Positions 1 through 7,685 of a stretch of DNA of 64,000 nt are shown here, in pieces (positions within the stretch are counted from its first letter, which is position 1; the number at the start of each line of letters is the position of its first letter). The position numbers were made by a program, and so were the translations under genes. The notes below the pieces were generated by a model that made no database searches, was not told the origin of the DNA, and saw only the letters and a program-made list of their open reading frames with translations. Origin of the DNA: a virus (Duplodnaviria; Caudoviricetes); IMG/VR virus record IMGVR_UViG_3300026442_000101, one strand, 5' to 3'.

Positions 1-858
1 CAAGTCGCCAGAGTAGCAGACAGTCGCACGCTCCAGTGGAGTCATGCCTTGAATCATCGACAGGATCATGGTCGACTCTTCAGGGATCTGCCAGTACAGG
101 TCAGACGACCGGTTCACCATCTCGAGAGTGTCAACCACCGACGGGTAGACCAGGTTGTACTCTTCGATCACCGCTTGGATGCGAGCCGAATCTTCGATGG
201 TCAGCATCGCTACCAAGTTTGCCTTGGCGATCTCAGGACTGTGGTAATGACGCGAACCGGCCAGGAAACGTTCTACCGTGGCGTTGCCGTAGCCTGCTGC
301 TGCCCGGCACAGCGAAGTCAAGCTGGAGTGACCAGTTGCCAGATACAGCGGGTTACCTTCGAAGCCGCGCATACCGGACACGGAGTTGATTCGGATCTTA
401 CGGGCGTTCTGGTCGTAGTCTGCCAGGGCTGCCTTCATCAATTCGCCGAGCTGCTTGAACTCGAACATCGCGTTCTTCGACTTCTTACGCGCTTTGATGT
501 TGTCGTCCTGCCACTCAGCAGTAACGGACTTCTCAACCTCTGGACGTTCGTACACCACAAGAGATGGCGACACAATGCGGCCGGTGTGTACGATATCTTC
601 CACGTAGTTGAGGAACGTGGTTTCGTCCTTCTCGCGGTGCCCTGGACCTCTGCGGACCAGTTGCAACATGCCGGGGTCTCGGAACTTCACCCCTTTGTCT
701 TCTTTGAACTTGTTGACCACATACTTCAAGCAATCTTCATACGGCTTCTGAAGTTGCAGCGACAGGTACTTAGCGACCTGCTGAATGTAGCCTTTACGGA
801 TTTCGATGTCGCGACTATATTTGCTGACATCCCACAGGAACGGATTCTCGGCGGACAT
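1..858 (-). CDS. B-family DNA polymerase subunit (phiKZ gp50-like), 5' part, continues beyond the left edge
   Basis: Hand-translated from ATG at 858 (SD AAAGGAAAGG): MSAENPFLWDVSKYSRD...DYDQNARKIRINSVSGMRGF...YGNATVERFLAG...CYSGDL. The translated stretches stay in one frame to base 1. QxARKIxxNSxSG resembles PolB motif B. Not in the ORF track. Confidence 0.8.
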   Translation of the reverse strand, partial: MSAENPFLWDVSKYSRDIEIRKGYIQQVAKYLSLQLQKPYEDCLKYVVNKFKEDKGVKFRDPGMLQLVRRGPGHREKDETTFLNYVEDIVHTGRIVSPSLVVYERPEVEKSVTAEWQDDNIKARKKSKNAMFEFKQLGELMKAALADYDQNARKIRINSVSGMRGFEGNPLYLATGHSSLTSLCRAAAGYGNATVERFLAGSRHYHSPEIAKANLVAMLTIEDSARIQAVIEEYNLVYPSVVDTLEMVNRSSDLYWQIPEESTMILSMIQGMTPLERATVCYSGDL

Positions 859-907
859 GACCTTTCCTTTACTAATTGCCTCACGTATCTTTAGGTTCGC
901 CAGTAAG

Positions 908-963
908 AAAAAAAAGAAGAGGCATAGCCTCCCCACCCACCAGCCGTAGCCAGTAGGTGGGGA
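908..963 (-). terminator. Intrinsic terminator
   Basis: Stem tccccacc/ggtgggga; on the minus strand followed by CTATGCC and a T-run. Confidence 0.65.
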
Positions 964-967
964 TAGA

Positions 968-1396
968 CTACAGAGTAGTCACCGTGAAGCCTTCAATGCC
1001 TGAGGCCAGGCACATGGCTCGCACGTTGTCAATCTGAGCGGCAGTGGTGCCGGCCGGGAAGGTAAACATGGTAGCTGGAGATGAGTTCTCCACGATCGAC
1101 GACTCGCGAATCCACGGGATGCCGAAGTACACCGCCTTGTTTTCGGCATTGATGAACTTCGCATACGGGTAGGCCCGATAGTCGTTTGGGGTACCGTCAT
1201 TGATGTACGGCCAGTACTGGGTGTGCCTGGCCATTGGATCGTAACCGGTATCCGCCACCATGTCCGCGTCAGGTAGCGACACGAACTTCAGGTTGCTGTA
1301 CTTCTCACCAGCGACGGTTTCGAAGGTCAACGTCTTGCCAGTGTTTTCGGAAACGAGCTTCACGCTATTACTCCTCGATGGCTCTGTAGTAGCCAC
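968..1396 (-). CDS. Hypothetical protein, conserved jumbo-phage type (GIPWI motif)
   Basis: 142-aa ORF directly upstream of the DNA polymerase, with phage-like codon usage. Confidence 0.7.
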   Translation of the reverse strand: MATTEPSRSNSVKLVSENTGKTLTFETVAGEKYSNLKFVSLPDADMVADTGYDPMARHTQYWPYINDGTPNDYRAYPYAKFINAENKAVYFGIPWIRESSIVENSSPATMFTFPAGTTAAQIDNVRAMCLASGIEGFTVTTL

Positions 1397-1700
1397 GCTT
1401 GTCGACGTCCAGATGCTTCAGAGTGCCTCGCAGCACCATCTCTTTCAAATCATCGTCTTCACAAGTAAGGATAGCGTGATACATCTCATCCATTACGTGC
1501 TCATATTCGCGGTCCAGCAGGTCCACGTCGACGAACGCTCGTTCGAGATCTCCCCAGAAACGCTTCCTCTCACTCTGGGCTCGCCAGACAGGGAACGGGG
1601 GTGACTCGTCGCAGTGCTCGTACGGCACTTTATTGTAGCAAGCTTCTTCGAGAACCATTGCCAGTGCTGGACAGTAGCCCACGATTTCATAACGCGCCAT
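1368..1700 (-). CDS. Hypothetical protein (small-gene array)
   Basis: 110-aa ORF tiled in a minus-strand operon. Confidence 0.7.
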   Translation of the reverse strand: MARYEIVGYCPALAMVLEEACYNKVPYEHCDESPPFPVWRAQSERKRFWGDLERAFVDVDLLDREYEHVMDEMYHAILTCEDDDLKEMVLRGTLKHLDVDKRGYYRAIEE

Positions 1701-1715
1701 GCGTTATCCCCCAAT

Positions 1716-2153
1716 TCAAATAACCTTGAACATCACATCGCAAGTAGTGTTGCGCGTCGACTTCACTATCTTGAAATTCACTTGGTATATTGACGCAGCT
1801 AAGTACCCTAGGCCTTTTATCAACTCCGTTATTCCGGGATACAGGTAGGTCATGCATTTCTCTGCAATGAATTCTGCATCCATTTCATTATTTACATACC
1901 GCTTTCTGTACAGCGTATCCGCCAACGGCATGTAGCTATCCGTAGAACGCCCATGGGCAAAGCCTGAGTATTCGGACAGGATAGCCTTCACGTTGTAGCC
2001 GAGATCGTCAACGTTGGAGTCGACATCGCTGATGAAGTCTCTCAGGATGTCGTCGATGTTGATTACGATGTACTGGGCTTCAGGTCGGTCAGTGGACCCT
2101 ACCGAGCCGCAGATGGGACGACGTTTTAATGACAGTGTTTTCCCGAGGGGCAT
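1716..2153 (-). CDS. Hypothetical protein (small-gene array)
   Basis: 145-aa ORF, GGTGG upstream; start uncertain. Confidence 0.65.
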   Translation of the reverse strand: MPLGKTLSLKRRPICGSVGSTDRPEAQYIVINIDDILRDFISDVDSNVDDLGYNVKAILSEYSGFAHGRSTDSYMPLADTLYRKRYVNNEMDAEFIAEKCMTYLYPGITELIKGLGYLAASIYQVNFKIVKSTRNTTCDVMFKVI

Positions 2154-2457
2154 GATGGACCACCGATAGGTTGCTGATCACGGTCACCGGATATCCCGTC
2201 TCAGACAACAATGTAGCGAGGGATTCGTACAGAGTCCTGACTGGGGAAGCTGCCGACAAGTGCTCGAGAATGATCTCTGTCGGCGGCCAGTTAAGGACAT
2301 GGTGCGCTACAGGGTACATCATGATGAAGTCGCTAACGACCGCACCCAGTACCTCCATGTAATACCCCATGTCGTCCTTTGACGTAAACATGTTGAGGCG
2401 ATCATCGTACAGCGAGATGATCATCTCTTTAGTGGCGACAGGCAATTTATTAGTCAT
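2089..2457 (-). CDS. Hypothetical protein (small-gene array)
   Basis: ATGA-coupled to the upstream stop at 2454-2456. Confidence 0.65.
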   Translation of the reverse strand: MTNKLPVATKEMIISLYDDRLNMFTSKDDMGYYMEVLGAVVSDFIMMYPVAHHVLNWPPTEIILEHLSAASPVRTLYESLATLLSETGYPVTVISNLSVVHHAPRENTVIKTSSHLRLGRVH

Positions 2458-2774
2458 ACCCATTCAAGCTCCACGTACGCTGTGTTGCTCTTGTTGATCT
2501 GACAATTACTGTTGATCAGCTCAGCCTTGTTGAAGTTAAGATGCTCATACAAACCGCTATCGTGCATGGCATCGAGGACAATTACTGACATATCCTCGAT
2601 AGCTCTGCTCGTAAGTTTGTACTTATTCATCAGTTCACGAGCCCTGTGGTGACCGATCCATGTATCAGTCTCAGCGGTCGCTAATACCCATGCGGACAGC
2701 ATAGAAACCATAGCGTCACGGGTCACGCTATGGTAAGGTTGTAGTTCGAAGATAAAACATTTCCGACCAGCCAT
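2454..2774 (-). CDS. Hypothetical protein (small-gene array)
   Basis: Start moved to MAGRKCF (GGAG SD), which removes the overlap with the upstream gene. Confidence 0.65.
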   Translation of the reverse strand: MAGRKCFIFELQPYHSVTRDAMVSMLSAWVLATAETDTWIGHHRARELMNKYKLTSRAIEDMSVIVLDAMHDSGLYEHLNFNKAELINSNCQINKSNTAYVELEWV

Positions 2775-2787
2775 TCTTTTCGCTCCA

Positions 2788-3213
2788 TCAGTCTGTGTCG
2801 AAGTGTACGTTGCAAGTAAAGCTACCGCCAGTCTTAGCTGTTCGAAATTGTCCAAAGCGAGGTGTCCCCTTGTGTTTATCTCGAATCTCCCTGCCTAATT
2901 CTTCGATAGTTTCTTTAGTATCCGACCAAATTGGGAAGTCTTGGTGCACGGGCCTCGTCAACTGCTCAAGCCAACGTTTGGCCTTACCGGCCTCACGGAC
3001 ATCGTCGCAATTGTCGAGGAACTCCTTGATCACATCAAGATCATCCCAATTAGCGTTTACCCACAGGTCCAGGACAGCCGAGAAGATCAGGCCGGTGACG
3101 ATCACTGGAGTTTCATCTTCCAGATCAGGTCCTCGGCACAGGATGTCGGCTATCTCGTAGAACTGGAGTACGGCCTCTTGGTCGATATTAGCCACGAGCC
3201 GGAAGTCGTCCAT
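2788..3213 (-). CDS. Hypothetical protein (small-gene array)
   Basis: 141 aa, TGATG coupling to the upstream gene. Confidence 0.7.
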   Translation of the reverse strand: MDDFRLVANIDQEAVLQFYEIADILCRGPDLEDETPVIVTGLIFSAVLDLWVNANWDDLDVIKEFLDNCDDVREAGKAKRWLEQLTRPVHQDFPIWSDTKETIEELGREIRDKHKGTPRFGQFRTAKTGGSFTCNVHFDTD

Positions 3214-3629
3214 CAGGTCACCATTAAGTAGCTGCCGCGCTTGGCGAACTTGATCTGGAATCGTTCCTCAGGATTCACTCTCAGATCACCACGAGGTAAT
3301 CGATTGAGCTCATCCCGCAGGCCATCTTCATGATGGTGCAGATCCCTGAAATAGTTGAGGAGCTGTAGGAATTCACCCCAGAGCTTATGGTTGTCGGACA
3401 TGTTCGTTAGCGAAGTCATGACAACCAATCTCTCAAACGCATCGATAATCTCGTTCCGATTGGCTACGAGGATCGATACCAGCAGGAGACTGCAAACCTT
3501 CTCAGTGAAGTCCTTACGGCACATATGGGGGACAAAGTCCCCCAGGCGGGTAAGTGCTTCAAGCTCTTCGGGGCAGATATCGACGATGAGAGACTTTGTC
3601 CTTCCGAACGACAGTCTCAGATCCATCAT
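3213..3629 (-). CDS. Hypothetical protein (small-gene array)
   Basis: 138 aa, coupled at both ends. Confidence 0.7.
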   Translation of the reverse strand: MMDLRLSFGRTKSLIVDICPEELEALTRLGDFVPHMCRKDFTEKVCSLLLVSILVANRNEIIDAFERLVVMTSLTNMSDNHKLWGEFLQLLNYFRDLHHHEDGLRDELNRLPRGDLRVNPEERFQIKFAKRGSYLMVT

Positions 3630-4159
3630 TCTTCCCCTTCTTCCTCTTCGTCTTCGACCTCTGCTTCTTGAGAGTCGTTGGCGATATCGACGACGCCGAA
3701 ATCCTCGTTGGTTTCCTCCTCGCCTTGGCAGATCTCGAGCAGGGCCGAACCATTGACCACGATCAGGTCACTGATACGCGCTGGACGCATGGCGGTCAGG
3801 AAGTCAAACTCAGCATGCAGCTGGTCGACCTTGTCGGAATACCACGAGTCGATGACACCGGCGATTTCGTCGACACGGTCAGCCGCGGTATGCGGCGTGT
3901 TGTTCGACAGATGCTTGAGCGAGAAGTCGTCATCGAAGAACTCGCTACGCAGGACAGCAGCCAGCAGGGCCGATTGGTCAACGGAGGTTTCATCCTCCAT
4001 CGCATCGAGGCCCAGGTTAGAGACAGTGACGATGGCGTAGGAATACCTGAGCTGGATCTCCTTCTGCTCGCCATTGGCTGATCCATCGGTCGAGTTCGGG
4101 GTGTACAACTTCCCCTTCTCGGCGACTAGTTTCGATATATCTTTCAAATCCAGTTTCAT
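3626..4159 (-). CDS. Hypothetical protein with an acidic C-terminal tail
   Basis: Start MKLDLK with GGAGG SD; ends EAEVEDEEEEGEE. Confidence 0.75.
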   Translation of the reverse strand: MKLDLKDISKLVAEKGKLYTPNSTDGSANGEQKEIQLRYSYAIVTVSNLGLDAMEDETSVDQSALLAAVLRSEFFDDDFSLKHLSNNTPHTAADRVDEIAGVIDSWYSDKVDQLHAEFDFLTAMRPARISDLIVVNGSALLEICQGEEETNEDFGVVDIANDSQEAEVEDEEEEGEE

Positions 4160-4553
4160 CGGACCTCCCGAAATAAGTGGTTTCGACAACGAGGAACTTG
4201 GTATCGTACGGGATACTGGCGGCAGTAATCACCATCATCTCGTCCACGTTGTCCGCAAAGAATAGTCTCAGCTCATCGTCCAGTTCGGCAATGAGTTCAA
4301 GAAGCGGCAGGAAATGCTCACGCTTTTTACAATGGCTACGCGCAATCTCCAGTAGGGACGGTGCTGTTTTATCAATGGTGCTGACGGCCACCTTTTCGAT
4401 AATGGCCTTGGTGTAGTTCTGAATGAGGAATCCATCGTAGTAGTCGAACTCTACGTAGAACTCCTCTATCCGGCGCATCCAATCGTTGGCTGCGTAGACG
4501 AGCGACTCACCACTCTTTCTTTCTGTGCCTCTTAGGGAGATATTCATTGGCAT
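4017..4553 (-). CDS. Hypothetical protein (small-gene array)
   Basis: 178-aa ORF; 3' end overlaps the next gene by 143 nt. Confidence 0.65.
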   Translation of the reverse strand: MPMNISLRGTERKSGESLVYAANDWMRRIEEFYVEFDYYDGFLIQNYTKAIIEKVAVSTIDKTAPSLLEIARSHCKKREHFLPLLELIAELDDELRLFFADNVDEMMVITAASIPYDTKFLVVETTYFGRSDETGFERYIETSRREGEVVHPELDRWISQWRAEGDPAQVFLRHRHCL

Positions 4554-5016
4554 GACGTTTCATCCAATCAGTAATCCGGTAGTCCTCGCCCATCTCGATC
4601 TCAATGCCAGTTGTGCGACGTCTCATGTATACTACATTCCACGTCGGTAACTTGATAACAGATCTTAGCAACGATGCGATCGCATCTCGCAGCTGTTCGA
4701 TCATCTCATTGGGATCAGGGTGGTCGTTTAGCAGACCATCGAACTTGTCGACATAGATGTCGTTGTCCTTCTCATCGAGGCACTTCGTCCACCACATCTT
4801 GGTGGTAAGGTAGTCGTCGATCATCTCAGCTACAAGGTCGACAATGAACCGACGGTCCTTTGCCGTCAGCTTATCGTTATATTTGGCAACTTCCCCAATA
4901 GCGATACCGCTGACATCTGAGTAGTCAAGGATACATATTTCGCCAACACTGCTCAATTGCACGGCTATTCCCCATGGCCAAGTAATCGCCATCGATAAGG
5001 AAGTAGATTCCCTCAT
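4507..5016 (-). CDS. Hypothetical protein (small-gene array)
   Basis: 169-aa ORF; start uncertain. Confidence 0.65.
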   Translation of the reverse strand: MRESTSLSMAITWPWGIAVQLSSVGEICILDYSDVSGIAIGEVAKYNDKLTAKDRRFIVDLVAEMIDDYLTTKMWWTKCLDEKDNDIYVDKFDGLLNDHPDPNEMIEQLRDAIASLLRSVIKLPTWNVVYMRRRTTGIEIEMGEDYRITDWMKRHANEYLPKRHRKKEW

Positions 5017-5359
5017 CGTCGAGCCAGTTTGGTTCTGGCGGCGGAAGATATTGTAATGGGTCTATGCAGAGGCTTTGGGCGGTAAGGGTTACCCGCATCC
5101 TTTCGTAAGGAACGTTCTTATCCTTACAGTCGAATAGCCGCATACTGACGCACGGAATCATCCACGCCTTGCAGTATAGCCTGGCAAACCAAGATTCCAG
5201 AATGGACTCATCAAACCTACCCGTCGCGTTGAGGCGGTCGAGTATGTCTCTGACGTCTACCAGCAAAGTGTTCTCGCGTCTTTCGAACTTCTTTTGCGGC
5301 GGGGGCTCGCGTTTTTCGCGCTCCTCAACCACATGCCTTAGCGATAATTGCATAGTCAC
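4925..5359 (-). CDS. Hypothetical protein (small-gene array)
   Basis: 144 aa, GGAGGT SD upstream. Confidence 0.7.
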   Translation of the reverse strand: MTMQLSLRHVVEEREKREPPPQKKFERRENTLLVDVRDILDRLNATGRFDESILESWFARLYCKAWMIPCVSMRLFDCKDKNVPYERMRVTLTAQSLCIDPLQYLPPPEPNWLDDEGIYFLIDGDYLAMGNSRAIEQCWRNMYP

Positions 5360-5399
5360 CTCCGTAGACTACATGATTAGGGTGCACGGTGTTTAGTTA

Positions 5400-5441
5400 C
5401 AAAAAATAAAGGGTAGGGAGGAGGTTTTTCAACCTCCTCCC
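5400..5441 (-). terminator. Intrinsic terminator
   Basis: 11-bp stem gggaggaggtt/aacctcctccc followed by a T-rich tract on the minus strand. Confidence 0.75.
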
Positions 5442-5460
5442 TGAAATTTGTGCCGGCTTC

Positions 5461-5679
5461 TCAGCTGAAGCTCGGCTCGCCATTCTCACCGAAATAAGGA
5501 TTGTGGCGGTTGATACAAACGTGCTTGTTTTCGTCGTACTTCTCTTCTTCGAAGATACCGTGCCAGTCGCCATGGATGCAACGATGGCAGCGGAAACCTC
5601 CGCCTTGCTGGTGGGTTGCTTGCAGGTGGTCTACGTTGTCGCACTGTTCGCAGACAAACACCATGTTTGTGGCTGTCAT
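5461..5679 (-). CDS. Small zinc-ribbon protein
   Basis: 72 aa, CEQC...CHRC followed by GDWHGIF. Confidence 0.7.
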   Translation of the reverse strand: MTATNMVFVCEQCDNVDHLQATHQQGGGFRCHRCIHGDWHGIFEEEKYDENKHVCINRHNPYFGENGEPSFS

Positions 5680-5746: not shown

Positions 5747-6766
5747 TTACAGGTAAACGGTAGAACCTTTCTGACCGCTTACCGCTGGAGCATCGAGCAG
5801 GGTTTCAGGCTGCTCGGTAATACCGACCTTCTGCTTGAACTCAGCCAGAGTGGTCTTCAGCTCAGCCAGGATTGGCTTCATGCGCAGGCCCGACAGGGTG
5901 TAGTAGAACGAGTTGTCGAATGCACGGCCTTCTTCCGGCAGGTAGCCCACGGTGTCGTAGGCAGCATCGACGTCAGGCACGATGGAGTCGTGAGACTTCA
6001 TCAGGGCGCCGTACGAGATAACCGGAGAATCGTTGGTCGCGGCCAGCAGGTCTTCTTCGCGCACGAACACTTCCAGCAGGGCCAGTTGCGCCTTGTGGCG
6101 AGTGTTCTCGCTGTACTTGAAGAAGCTGCGGATGTCGTTCTCGTCGATGTGGGCGTTCTTGCCGGATGCGAACATCGAGATCCAGCGAGCGATGCGCAGA
6201 GCCGTTTCGTTGTTGTCGGCGAGCGACTTCTTCGGGTCGTTCTTGTGGTAGGAGACGGCGTACTCGGCGTTGATTTCGGCGAGGTCGCGTTCCAGGTTGA
6301 TGAGGGACCCCAGGCTGTTACCGGTAGAGCGGTCGGACTTGTAGTCGCCGGTAACGATCGCGATGACGATAGCACCGGTTTCCGCAATAGCGCGCACCAG
6401 GCGACGGCCGCCGGTGGAGCCAGTGCCGCCAGACAGCGAGTAGAACACGACGTTAACTTTGGCCGGCTTGTGCTTGAGCATCAGCTTTGGAATTTCAGCT
6501 TCGAAGATCCGGTCGCCTTCTACCTGGTTCTTGCCGAGGCCCTTACCGTCGTTGACGACGAAGAAATTGTCGGCGGCGGAACCGACCATGTTGGCGAAGC
6601 TGGTGTCGACGTAGATGAAGGTTTCATTGGCCAGCTGCAGAGAGTTCTTCGGCTGGTCGCTGCGGTAAGCCTTCAGCTGGTTGATACCGGTACCGCCAAC
6701 AGCCCAGAACTTGACTTCCTGTGCTTTGGCTTCGATCAGGGTTTGTTGCGCTTGGACTTCAGACAT
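5747..6766 (-). CDS. phuZ: Phage tubulin PhuZ
   Basis: GGTGIN (T1 loop), YVDTS, SLSGGTGSTG (tubulin signature), IDEND (T7 catalytic loop); 339 aa; chimallivirus context. Confidence 0.93.
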   Translation of the reverse strand: MSEVQAQQTLIEAKAQEVKFWAVGGTGINQLKAYRSDQPKNSLQLANETFIYVDTSFANMVGSAADNFFVVNDGKGLGKNQVEGDRIFEAEIPKLMLKHKPAKVNVVFYSLSGGTGSTGGRRLVRAIAETGAIVIAIVTGDYKSDRSTGNSLGSLINLERDLAEINAEYAVSYHKNDPKKSLADNNETALRIARWISMFASGKNAHIDENDIRSFFKYSENTRHKAQLALLEVFVREEDLLAATNDSPVISYGALMKSHDSIVPDVDAAYDTVGYLPEEGRAFDNSFYYTLSGLRMKPILAELKTTLAEFKQKVGITEQPETLLDAPAVSGQKGSTVYL

Positions 6767-6848: not shown

Positions 6849-7685
6849 ATGGACCCGGTCACGGTCGCACTCATCAAAGTGAAGGCTGAGATCCCGCGAG
6901 ATATTCTCAAGCAGGCTTTCATGCCGAAACGTTACGACCCGGTAGAGAACGACCGGTATTTCGATAACGTAACCTCGGTTTCCATCGACCAGCAAATCCG
7001 TCAACTCGTAATTGAGGGACGGGTGTCGATCGATGTGAACCTGATTGGCGGCACCGAGATGTTCTTGCCGCTGGGACTGGCTCAGCGCGAATTCCTCGAT
7101 GCCTGGAACATGATCTATCGATTCAGCCGGGATGTACTCGGCGGTCGACGTATCACCACGGTCCACGAGTTGGTCTACGGGATTACCCAAGGACTCTCTG
7201 GCCAAGGCACCGCTGGCTACGACGGGCGCGCTTCTGACATGCTCCTTGTGGGGCGTGACATCATGCGTGCTGTAGGCGGTACGGCGACTCTCGGTACAGC
7301 ATACGTGCAGATCGTAGGAGTTAACACAGTACTCGTAAACGACGCTAACCAAGTGATTGGCGATGCGGCGCTTCGAGCCACTGTGACCCATGAACCGAAC
7401 TTCAATGACCTGAAGCCAGTTTACTACCACGCATTCGCAGAGCTCGTAGCTCTAGCCGTTAAGGGCTATGTCTACAACACTCTGGTGATCGACCTCGATG
7501 AAGGTCAGATCCGAGGCGGTATGACTCTGGGTCGTATCCGTGAGGTCGTGGACTCCTACGCTGACGCAAACCAGATGTACTGGGAATACCTGACCACCAA
7601 GTGGCAACGTATCTCCACTATGAACAATACCGAACAGTACCGGAAGATCTTGAAAATGTCTCTCGGTGCTAAGCCTCGATACTGA
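6849..7685 (+). CDS. Conserved phiKZ-like protein, probably virion-associated
   Basis: 278 aa, GGAGG SD, divergent from phuZ, TATG upstream; family recognised from memory. Confidence 0.7.
   Translation: MDPVTVALIKVKAEIPRDILKQAFMPKRYDPVENDRYFDNVTSVSIDQQIRQLVIEGRVSIDVNLIGGTEMFLPLGLAQREFLDAWNMIYRFSRDVLGGRRITTVHELVYGITQGLSGQGTAGYDGRASDMLLVGRDIMRAVGGTATLGTAYVQIVGVNTVLVNDANQVIGDAALRATVTHEPNFNDLKPVYYHAFAELVALAVKGYVYNTLVIDLDEGQIRGGMTLGRIREVVDSYADANQMYWEYLTTKWQRISTMNNTEQYRKILKMSLGAKPRY

Follow-up and report, generated by a model that had tools for sequence, protein, structure and literature searches.

A conserved run of ten small genes between the polymerase and PhuZ genes of an uncultured chimallivirus: candidate diverged copies of one domain

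The viral DNA analysed here (64,000 nucleotides, hereafter the window; IMG/VR record IMGVR_UViG_3300026442_000101) comes from a divergent, uncultured chimallivirus, that is, a nucleus-forming jumbo phage. Between the genes for its family-B DNA polymerase and its PhuZ tubulin, ten consecutive small genes (g01-g10) fill positions 1368-5359. This array raises the question of whether proteins so different in sequence could be copies of one domain and, if so, what the copies do. The initial annotation, which was made from the sequence alone, had proposed that one fold was expanded in place and that the products act as adaptors for cargo selection or as a hetero-oligomer. On the evidence described below, most of the ten probably inherited a common fold. 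The best overall explanation, namely that they are ancient, diverged copies of one chimallivirus domain acting as import specificity factors, stands at about even odds.

The array consists of real genes. All ten open reading frames (ORFs) lie on the minus strand and encode proteins of 106-178 amino acids (aa), which range from acidic to near neutral in charge (Table 1). The likely starts, given in Table 1 as the upper coordinate of each gene, were chosen from ribosome-binding sites and orthologues; that of g04, for example, has GGAG upstream and agrees with the orthologues. With these starts, neighbouring genes overlap by 1, 4, 10, 38, 47, 65 or 143 nt or are separated by gaps of 13 and 15 nt. 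The ten proteins are 76-95% identical to their orthologues in L001, a metagenomic contig whose PhuZ is 84% identical to that of the window, and the ratios of nonsynonymous to synonymous substitution rates (dN/dS) against L001 are 0.06-0.16 across the array (0.19 for PhuZ), indicating purifying selection. Coordinates, packing and dN/dS thus bear out the description of ten tightly coupled small genes, and the remark that the left part is AT-richer with weaker codon bias than the structural genes is modestly true: the GC content of the array is 0.507 versus 0.544 in the window, and its GC at third codon positions is 0.54-0.70 versus 0.76 in PhuZ, being also below the values of the polymerase and SH3DP genes.

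The principal evidence for a common domain comes from AlphaFold2 models of two same-frame read-through fusions. Model 1 joins g02 and g01 of the window and was computed with genome-paired rows from seven relatives having the same frame relation (alignment A4), and model 2 joins g05, g04 and g03 of the related contig L025 (alignment A7). In A7, anchoring g05 with read-through rows left two junk rows under g04, and g05 is represented by four alignment rows only. The mean predicted local distance difference test (pLDDT) values are 74.7 for model 1 and 74.2 for model 2, with domains reaching 80-97. In model 1, g02 has a disordered leader, a strand at residues 27-32, helices and a hairpin at residues 119-130 and 135-145, and g01 (residues 155-260 of the fused model) has one strand, four helices and a hairpin. 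In model 2, the g04 orthologue is predicted as a strand, four helices and a hairpin of 11 + 11 residues, and the g03 orthologue as a strand, a helical bundle, a hairpin and a short terminal helix, both with a pLDDT of about 90. For the g05 orthologue, four helices are predicted with confidence and the C-terminal hairpin at low confidence only, and no N-terminal strand is called.

These elements fall where the initial annotation had placed them when it read a shared architecture from the sequence: the predicted strands coincide with YIVINI (g02) and YEIVGY (g01), and the hairpins with the stretches VNFKIVK..DVMFKV and LKHLDVD..YYRAI. The shared architecture is therefore supported by AlphaFold2 for g01, g02, g03 and g04 and in part for g05, and for g06-g10 by sequence pattern only, in that their orthologues keep an N-terminal hydrophobic run and a C-terminal strand-turn-strand pattern; the g10 orthologues, for instance, retain a motif of IVDISDL type in the N-terminal strand and the motif WFLI..L.MG at the C-terminal end. 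When applied to the alignments, a Chou-Fasman-type prediction agrees with AlphaFold2 at 65-68% of positions on g01 and g02 and finds most N-terminal strands; it misses the hairpins and is too crude to count. In the multi-ORF fusion alignments A3, A5 and A6, MAFFT put orthologues of one family onto the segments of other families, which is consistent with a shared layout and is no evidence in itself.

Comparison of the sequences agrees with the statement that the ten share no obvious identity. Pairwise Smith-Waterman scores against shuffles reach z values of at most 3.3 and so detect no relation among the ten, iterated hidden Markov models (HMMs) of each family never pick up another array family or find further members elsewhere in the window, and Pfam and PHROGs scans of the ten proteins yield chance-level matches only. 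More sensitive all-against-all comparison of family profiles by hhalign, based on alignments of 5-10 orthologues each, gives a raised signal. The mean score is 15.7 for array-internal pairs versus 11.9 and 12.2 for array-control and control-control pairs (Mann-Whitney p 3e-9, for pairs that are not independent), where the controls are seven families from the same contigs, i.e., five other small proteins, the SH3DP protein and the cysteine protein encoded beside PhuZ. The 13 best pairs are all array-internal. The highest of them, g05-g06, is aligned end to end over 123 columns (E 5.8e-4), followed by g04-g07 (probability 19% over 115 columns) and, among the remaining array pairs, all below 15%, by g07-g10 (14%); all three are sub-significant, and the last of them, whose alignment is out of register, is probably spurious. 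The g05-g06, g04-g07, g02-g10 and g08-g09 alignments are in register at both the N-terminal strands and the C-terminal strand-turn-strand. Merged two-family profiles rank other array members first (g09 at 22% for g04+g07, and g04 at 8.5% for g01+g03), and merging an array family with a control family brings no gain. Given this dependence among pairs, and since a common composition or class of structure may contribute, the raised scores are no more than suggestive of relatedness.

If the ten are related, the duplications would be old. Iterated HMM searches find the array collinear in L001, L013, L005, L021, L025, L022, L026 and L027 and, as far as their partial stretches of the region extend, in L003 and L014. 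Each contig covering the region has one orthologue per array gene in the same order, with two exceptions: the L014/L022/L026/L027 subclade lacks g05, and L025 lacks g08. Conserved clustering in relatives, set beforehand as a test of the proposal, is thus found. The loss or gain of single members, with the remaining order intact, indicates slow turnover of membership. Among nine contigs (L003, L013, L021, L025, L005, L014, L022, L026 and L027), the identities of the array proteins fall to about 20-30% in the alignments, and the polymerases are 64-94% identical to that of the window. Close and intermediate relatives are metagenomic contigs only: judged by the polymerase, Pseudomonas phage pPa_SNUABM_DT01 (44% identity) is the nearest phage in culture, no PhuZ of phage records is more than 30% identical to that of the window, and megablast of the array region against phage records gives no match at the DNA level. 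Because the ten are already separate orthologous groups in every relative, any duplication predates the whole clade. Of the proposal that one fold was expanded in place, the single fold in four of the five folded families and the raised profile scores among the ten speak for the first half, but the expansion is not recent.

The array also has relatives outside its own clade. In Foldseek searches of BFVD, small unnamed proteins head the lists of both models, and every named domain-sized match is a protein of a phiKZ-like jumbo phage. For model 1, PhiPA3 gp039 ranks first over 302 columns, and a 100-aa protein of Ea35-70 (probability 0.96, template modelling (TM) score by target 0.53) and a 120-aa protein of Mortimer (TM by target 0.57) also match. 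For model 2, proteins of RisingSun, Aeromonas D3, pEt-SU, 201phi2-1, PhiEaH1 (three), Noxifer (two), Aphrodite1 and Psa21 match with probabilities of 0.9-1.0 and TM by target of 0.4-0.56. The array domain models have no matching solved structure.

One link outside the clade is firm at the level of profiles. The g09 family matches the gp43 group with an hhalign probability of 99.3%, and a deep g09 HMM finds phiKZ gp43 (E 4.9e-11) and PhiPA3 gp039 (E 4.6e-10), as well as gp43-like genes of Psa21, pVa-21, Xoo-sp14 and FLC1-1B. By these profiles, true homology links g09 to the N-terminal half of phiKZ gp43 and PhiPA3 gp039. The g09 profile retrieves 140 representative clusters at E<1e-3 among 1.84 billion proteins, most of which are single-domain proteins of about 150 aa, with a few of about 300 aa containing two matched stretches. 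In three such relatives of about 300-380 aa (P0030, P0034 and P0040), the 150-aa profile is matched twice; these represent tandem-duplicated forms of the module, and phiKZ gp43 may be another. That the two-domain gp039 is the best neighbour of a two-domain fusion would fit tandem duplication of one module.

Two other leads from the ESM Atlas were set aside. The look-up with g06 returned a poor Atlas model (pLDDT 0.46) and meaningless neighbours. A feature search with g10 suggested helical-plus-gelsolin fragments of Sec23/Sec24 (score 0.95, 211 shared features), and this was dropped because Pfam scans of nine family members and a profile search of PDB sequences gave no support.

Several observations weigh against a common domain with an import role. 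The models cover g01-g05 only, with g05 half modelled, and the same architecture, as predicted, falls short of the same fold; moreover, fused read-through models could have paired strands of neighbouring domains. In the profile comparison, array-internal scores exceed those of controls but no family pair reaches significance, the best hhalign probability being 29% (g05-g06), and the raised scores could come from shared composition or secondary-structure class instead of descent. No Foldseek match of either model to BFVD has an E-value below 1e-3. The profiles of the ten families detect neither Imp2 nor Imp4, the phiKZ import factors discussed below; against Imp2 (gp47/PhiPA3 gp044), no family exceeds an hhalign probability of 3.4% and the deep g09 profile reaches 1.3%, and a word-indexed homologue search with Imp2 returns phiKZ's own cluster only. 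The predicted structural match to the Imp2 homologue is weak (PhiPA3 gp044 at rank 20 for model 2, probability 0.66, TM by target 0.32, root mean square deviation 10).

These observations bear on the strongest alternative, in which the ten are unrelated, lineage-specific accessory or host-takeover proteins that have a simple layout in common and occupy a permissive slot of the genome. The absence of any Pfam or PHROG family and of significant pairwise or profile similarity is what this alternative predicts, as is the finding that each chimallivirus clade has its own families in the interval, and the loss of g05 and g08 in some relatives fits it too. It accounts poorly, however, for one specific order of elements in four of the five folded families, for array-internal profile scores above those of controls, for structural neighbours that are almost only chimallivirus proteins, and for order and content kept across the clade despite divergence to about 20-30% identity. 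Unrelated origins are therefore regarded as rather unlikely. Descent from one fold, as the initial annotation proposed, is somewhat the better bet, with the fold itself shown for fewer than half of the members, and common descent would then extend to all ten.

What might such copies do? In phiKZ, two genes directly upstream of gp49 (SH3DP) and gp50 (polymerase) have been characterised. The product of orf47, Imp2 (PhiPA3 orf44), is needed for import of Nlp1 into the phage nucleus and is itself imported in an Imp1-dependent manner (10.1101/2024.03.27.586873); that of orf48, Imp4, is needed for import of host TopA (Kokontis et al., bioRxiv 10.1101/2024.03.27.586873). The authors consider Imp2 and Imp4 possible cargo-specific adaptors that are conserved only in Pseudomonas phiKZ-like phages (10.1101/2024.03.27.586873). 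In a transposon screen, neither the Imp2 nor the Imp4 gene carries disruptive insertions. Import is the best-supported mechanism for the array on account of its location, the precedent of Imp2 and Imp4 and the weak link by structure, and the suggestion of adaptors for cargo selection fits this precedent in the same interval but finds no sequence homology to either protein. By this analogy, an import function of the array proteins is a tentative proposal, with the chances against it.

According to the proposed mechanism, the domain would begin with a strand, continue as a bundle of about four helices and end in a hairpin that probably pairs with the first strand, and some members would carry a disordered leader or tail in addition. 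Each member would serve as a nuclear-import specificity factor like Imp2 and Imp4, binding one cargo or a small set of cargoes and presenting them to Imp1/PicA, the importer associated with the shell. As the copies diversified, the range of imported proteins would widen.

A second alternative explains the translational coupling by assembly of the ten into one hetero-oligomer of fixed stoichiometry. Start/stop overlaps run throughout the array and include the conserved 143-nt overlap of g08 and g07, and complex prediction for this pair scores 0.34 versus 0.00 for the best of 3 controls, with at least 22% contact agreement between runs and a partner pLDDT of at least 61. The pass mark used is reached by 58/80 solved complexes and 2/110 mismatched pairs, but passing scores of 0.60 or less comprise 7/80 solved complexes and both passing mismatches; by this calibration, so weak a pass is more often wrong than right. 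The predicted TM scores of the fused models are low (0.47 and 0.43), so that no confident packing of neighbouring domains is predicted. Losses of single members in relatives fit an obligate complex poorly, and gene overlaps are common in phage operons whatever the assembly. The hetero-oligomer of the initial annotation thus retains one weak complex prediction against low inter-domain confidence, and is improbable. Least probable of all is that the ten are DNA replication accessory factors acting at the replisome inside the nucleus, which would suit a terminator-bounded unit shared with SH3DP directly upstream of the polymerase gene and a polymerase neighbourhood conserved in all chimalliviruses examined, but not the lack of similarity to any replication protein family, a very fast divergence unlike that of SH3DP and polymerase, or the import functions of the two characterised genes in the syntenic phiKZ block.

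The array and the gene that follows it, which encodes the polymerase-associated SH3DP protein, look like one transcription unit because intrinsic terminators flank them on both sides (Table 1). Hairpins with compensating base changes, each followed by a T run, occur at the equivalent of the upstream border in L001, L013, L021 and L025, and the border between SH3DP and polymerase has a hairpin and a T run also in L013, L021 and L025; in L001 the equivalent hairpin is present and the examined stretch stops ahead of any T run. The stems differ among relatives yet stay complementary, which argues that the terminators function. Between the upstream terminator and the ribosome-binding site of g10 lies a conserved stretch, AATCATGTAGTCTAC, which is found again in L001 and L013 and, in nearly the same form, in L025 and has no repeats elsewhere within the window. 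The array may be transcribed from a promoter in the leader that contains this stretch, and AATCATGTAGTCTAC itself may serve as a promoter of the phage or as a processing site. A similar sequence, TGTAGTCTA, comes after the SH3DP stop. The motif ATGTAGTCTAC was rejected as a promoter-like element, as it is not recurrent within the window.

Table 1. Positions of the array genes, their flanking genes and the associated signals in the window
Feature	Position	Strand	Description
Family-B DNA polymerase	within 1-861	-	start of gene (~861)
Intrinsic terminator	916-934	-	between SH3DP gene and polymerase start
SH3DP protein (phiKZ gp49 family)	968-1363	-	Pfam PF20287; last gene of unit
g01	1368-1700	-	110 aa
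g02	1716-2153	-	145 aa; disordered basic leader of ~24 residues, overlapping g03 end
g03	2089-2463	-	124 aa
g04	2454-2774	-	106 aa; ORF could extend to 2855
g05	2788-3213	-	141 aa
g06	3213-3629	-	138 aa
g07	3626-4159	-	177 aa; acidic tail, net charge -29; first 143 nt overlap g08
g08	4017-4553	-	178 aa; conserved C-terminal extension GFERYIE..GE.VHPE; dN/dS 0.15
g08/g07 overlap	4017-4159	-	143 nt, different frames, conserved
g09	4507-4962	-	~151 aa; ORF could extend to 5016; homologue (by profile) of phiKZ gp43 / PhiPA3 gp039 N-terminal domain
g10	4925-5353	-	142 aa; ORF could extend to 5359; dN/dS 0.08
Array leader	5354-5414	-	conserved AATCATGTAGTCTAC stretch and GGAGG ribosome-binding site
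AATCATGTAGTCTAC stretch	5360-5390	-	between terminator and g10 ribosome-binding site
Intrinsic terminator, upstream edge of unit	5415-5442	-	12-bp GC-rich stem then T run; between four-cysteine (zinc-ribbon-like) gene and g10
Cysteine protein	5461-5679	-	72 aa, two CxxC pairs; directly after PhuZ
PhuZ tubulin	5747-6766	-	
DUF7484 protein (phiKZ gp42 family)	6849-7685	+	divergent from PhuZ

Both frames of the g08/g07 overlap appear to be coding, since it contains the strongly conserved g08 motif and, in the g07 frame, no later start codon precedes the first strand. The genes flanking the array are not members of its family. The SH3DP protein is assigned by its match to PF20287 (66 bits against a gathering cut-off of 25, E 3e-18) and is conserved in every chimallivirus locus fetched. 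The 72-aa cysteine protein, probably a small zinc ribbon, has no Pfam family; its conservation reaches to Pseudomonas phage DT01 and Xanthomonas phage Xoo-sp14.

Few factors are known by which the protein shell of the phage nucleus selects its cargo, and those specific to particular cargoes, Imp2, Imp4 and Imp5, are reported to be confined to Pseudomonas phiKZ-like phages. A wider form of the import proposal holds that the ten genes, phiKZ gp43-gp48 and the runs in Erwinia, Klebsiella, Vibrio and other phages all go back to a single ancestral adaptor gene, amplified beside the polymerase gene before the chimalliviruses radiated, each copy licensing a different cargo through the shell via Imp1. 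This is a speculative and unlikely extension, more doubtful than the import role itself. If it holds, the interval would be a fast-evolving import specificity locus with a logic like that of the diversified importin-alpha adaptors of eukaryotes, and the number and divergence of copies would reflect the range of imported proteins. One ancient family throughout Chimalliviridae would mean that every nucleus-forming phage carries a ready list of candidate adaptors. If the proteins are not adaptors, the array still defines a chimallivirus-specific domain with neither a Pfam family nor a solved structure.

Comparison with known systems places the array within a conserved interval. The order PhuZ, small genes, SH3DP, polymerase, chimallin and RNA polymerase subunit is kept in the fetched Pseudomonas, Erwinia and Salmonella chimalliviruses and in FLC1-1B, and the Xoo-sp14 and pVa-21 stretches contain the small genes, SH3DP and polymerase, with no PhuZ within the stretch. 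Across clades SH3DP alone is shared by sequence, and the small-gene families are clade-specific. Searches of the literature yielded neither a description of the interval as a paralog family nor a function for phiKZ gp43-gp46. In the Erwinia and Salmonella phages, the runs of Ea35-70 (gp208-216), SA002 and pEa_SNUABM_37 resemble the array in slot, overlapping-end packing and gene sizes but have no sequence-level link to it; the Ea35-70 (100 aa) and Mortimer (120 aa) proteins are structural neighbours at the domain level, their UniProt entries being unmapped to interval genes. The uncharacterised family of phiKZ gp43, PhiPA3 gp039 and 201phi2-1 gp75 includes g09 by profile, although gp43 has about 340-360 aa and g09 matches its N-terminal half only.

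The closest parallel is the phiKZ block itself. The DUF7484 gene (gp42) lies inside the interval in phiKZ and PhiPA3, but in the window and in Erwinia phages it is found beyond PhuZ, so that a local rearrangement separates the two groups and the true positional counterpart of the array is phiKZ gp43-gp48. The phiKZ block has about seven members versus ten here, and the roles of Imp2 and Imp4 in it are known by experiment whereas the present array is known from its sequence. Like the array, gp43-gp48 form a run of same-strand genes for proteins of 100-180 aa in the same slot, after PhuZ and directly before SH3DP (gp49) and polymerase (gp50). By eye, Imp2, Imp4, gp45, gp46 and PhiPA3 gp038 show the pattern of an N-terminal strand and a C-terminal hairpin, and Imp2 and the g09/gp43 family have in common a G-E-D-aromatic motif just past the hairpin.

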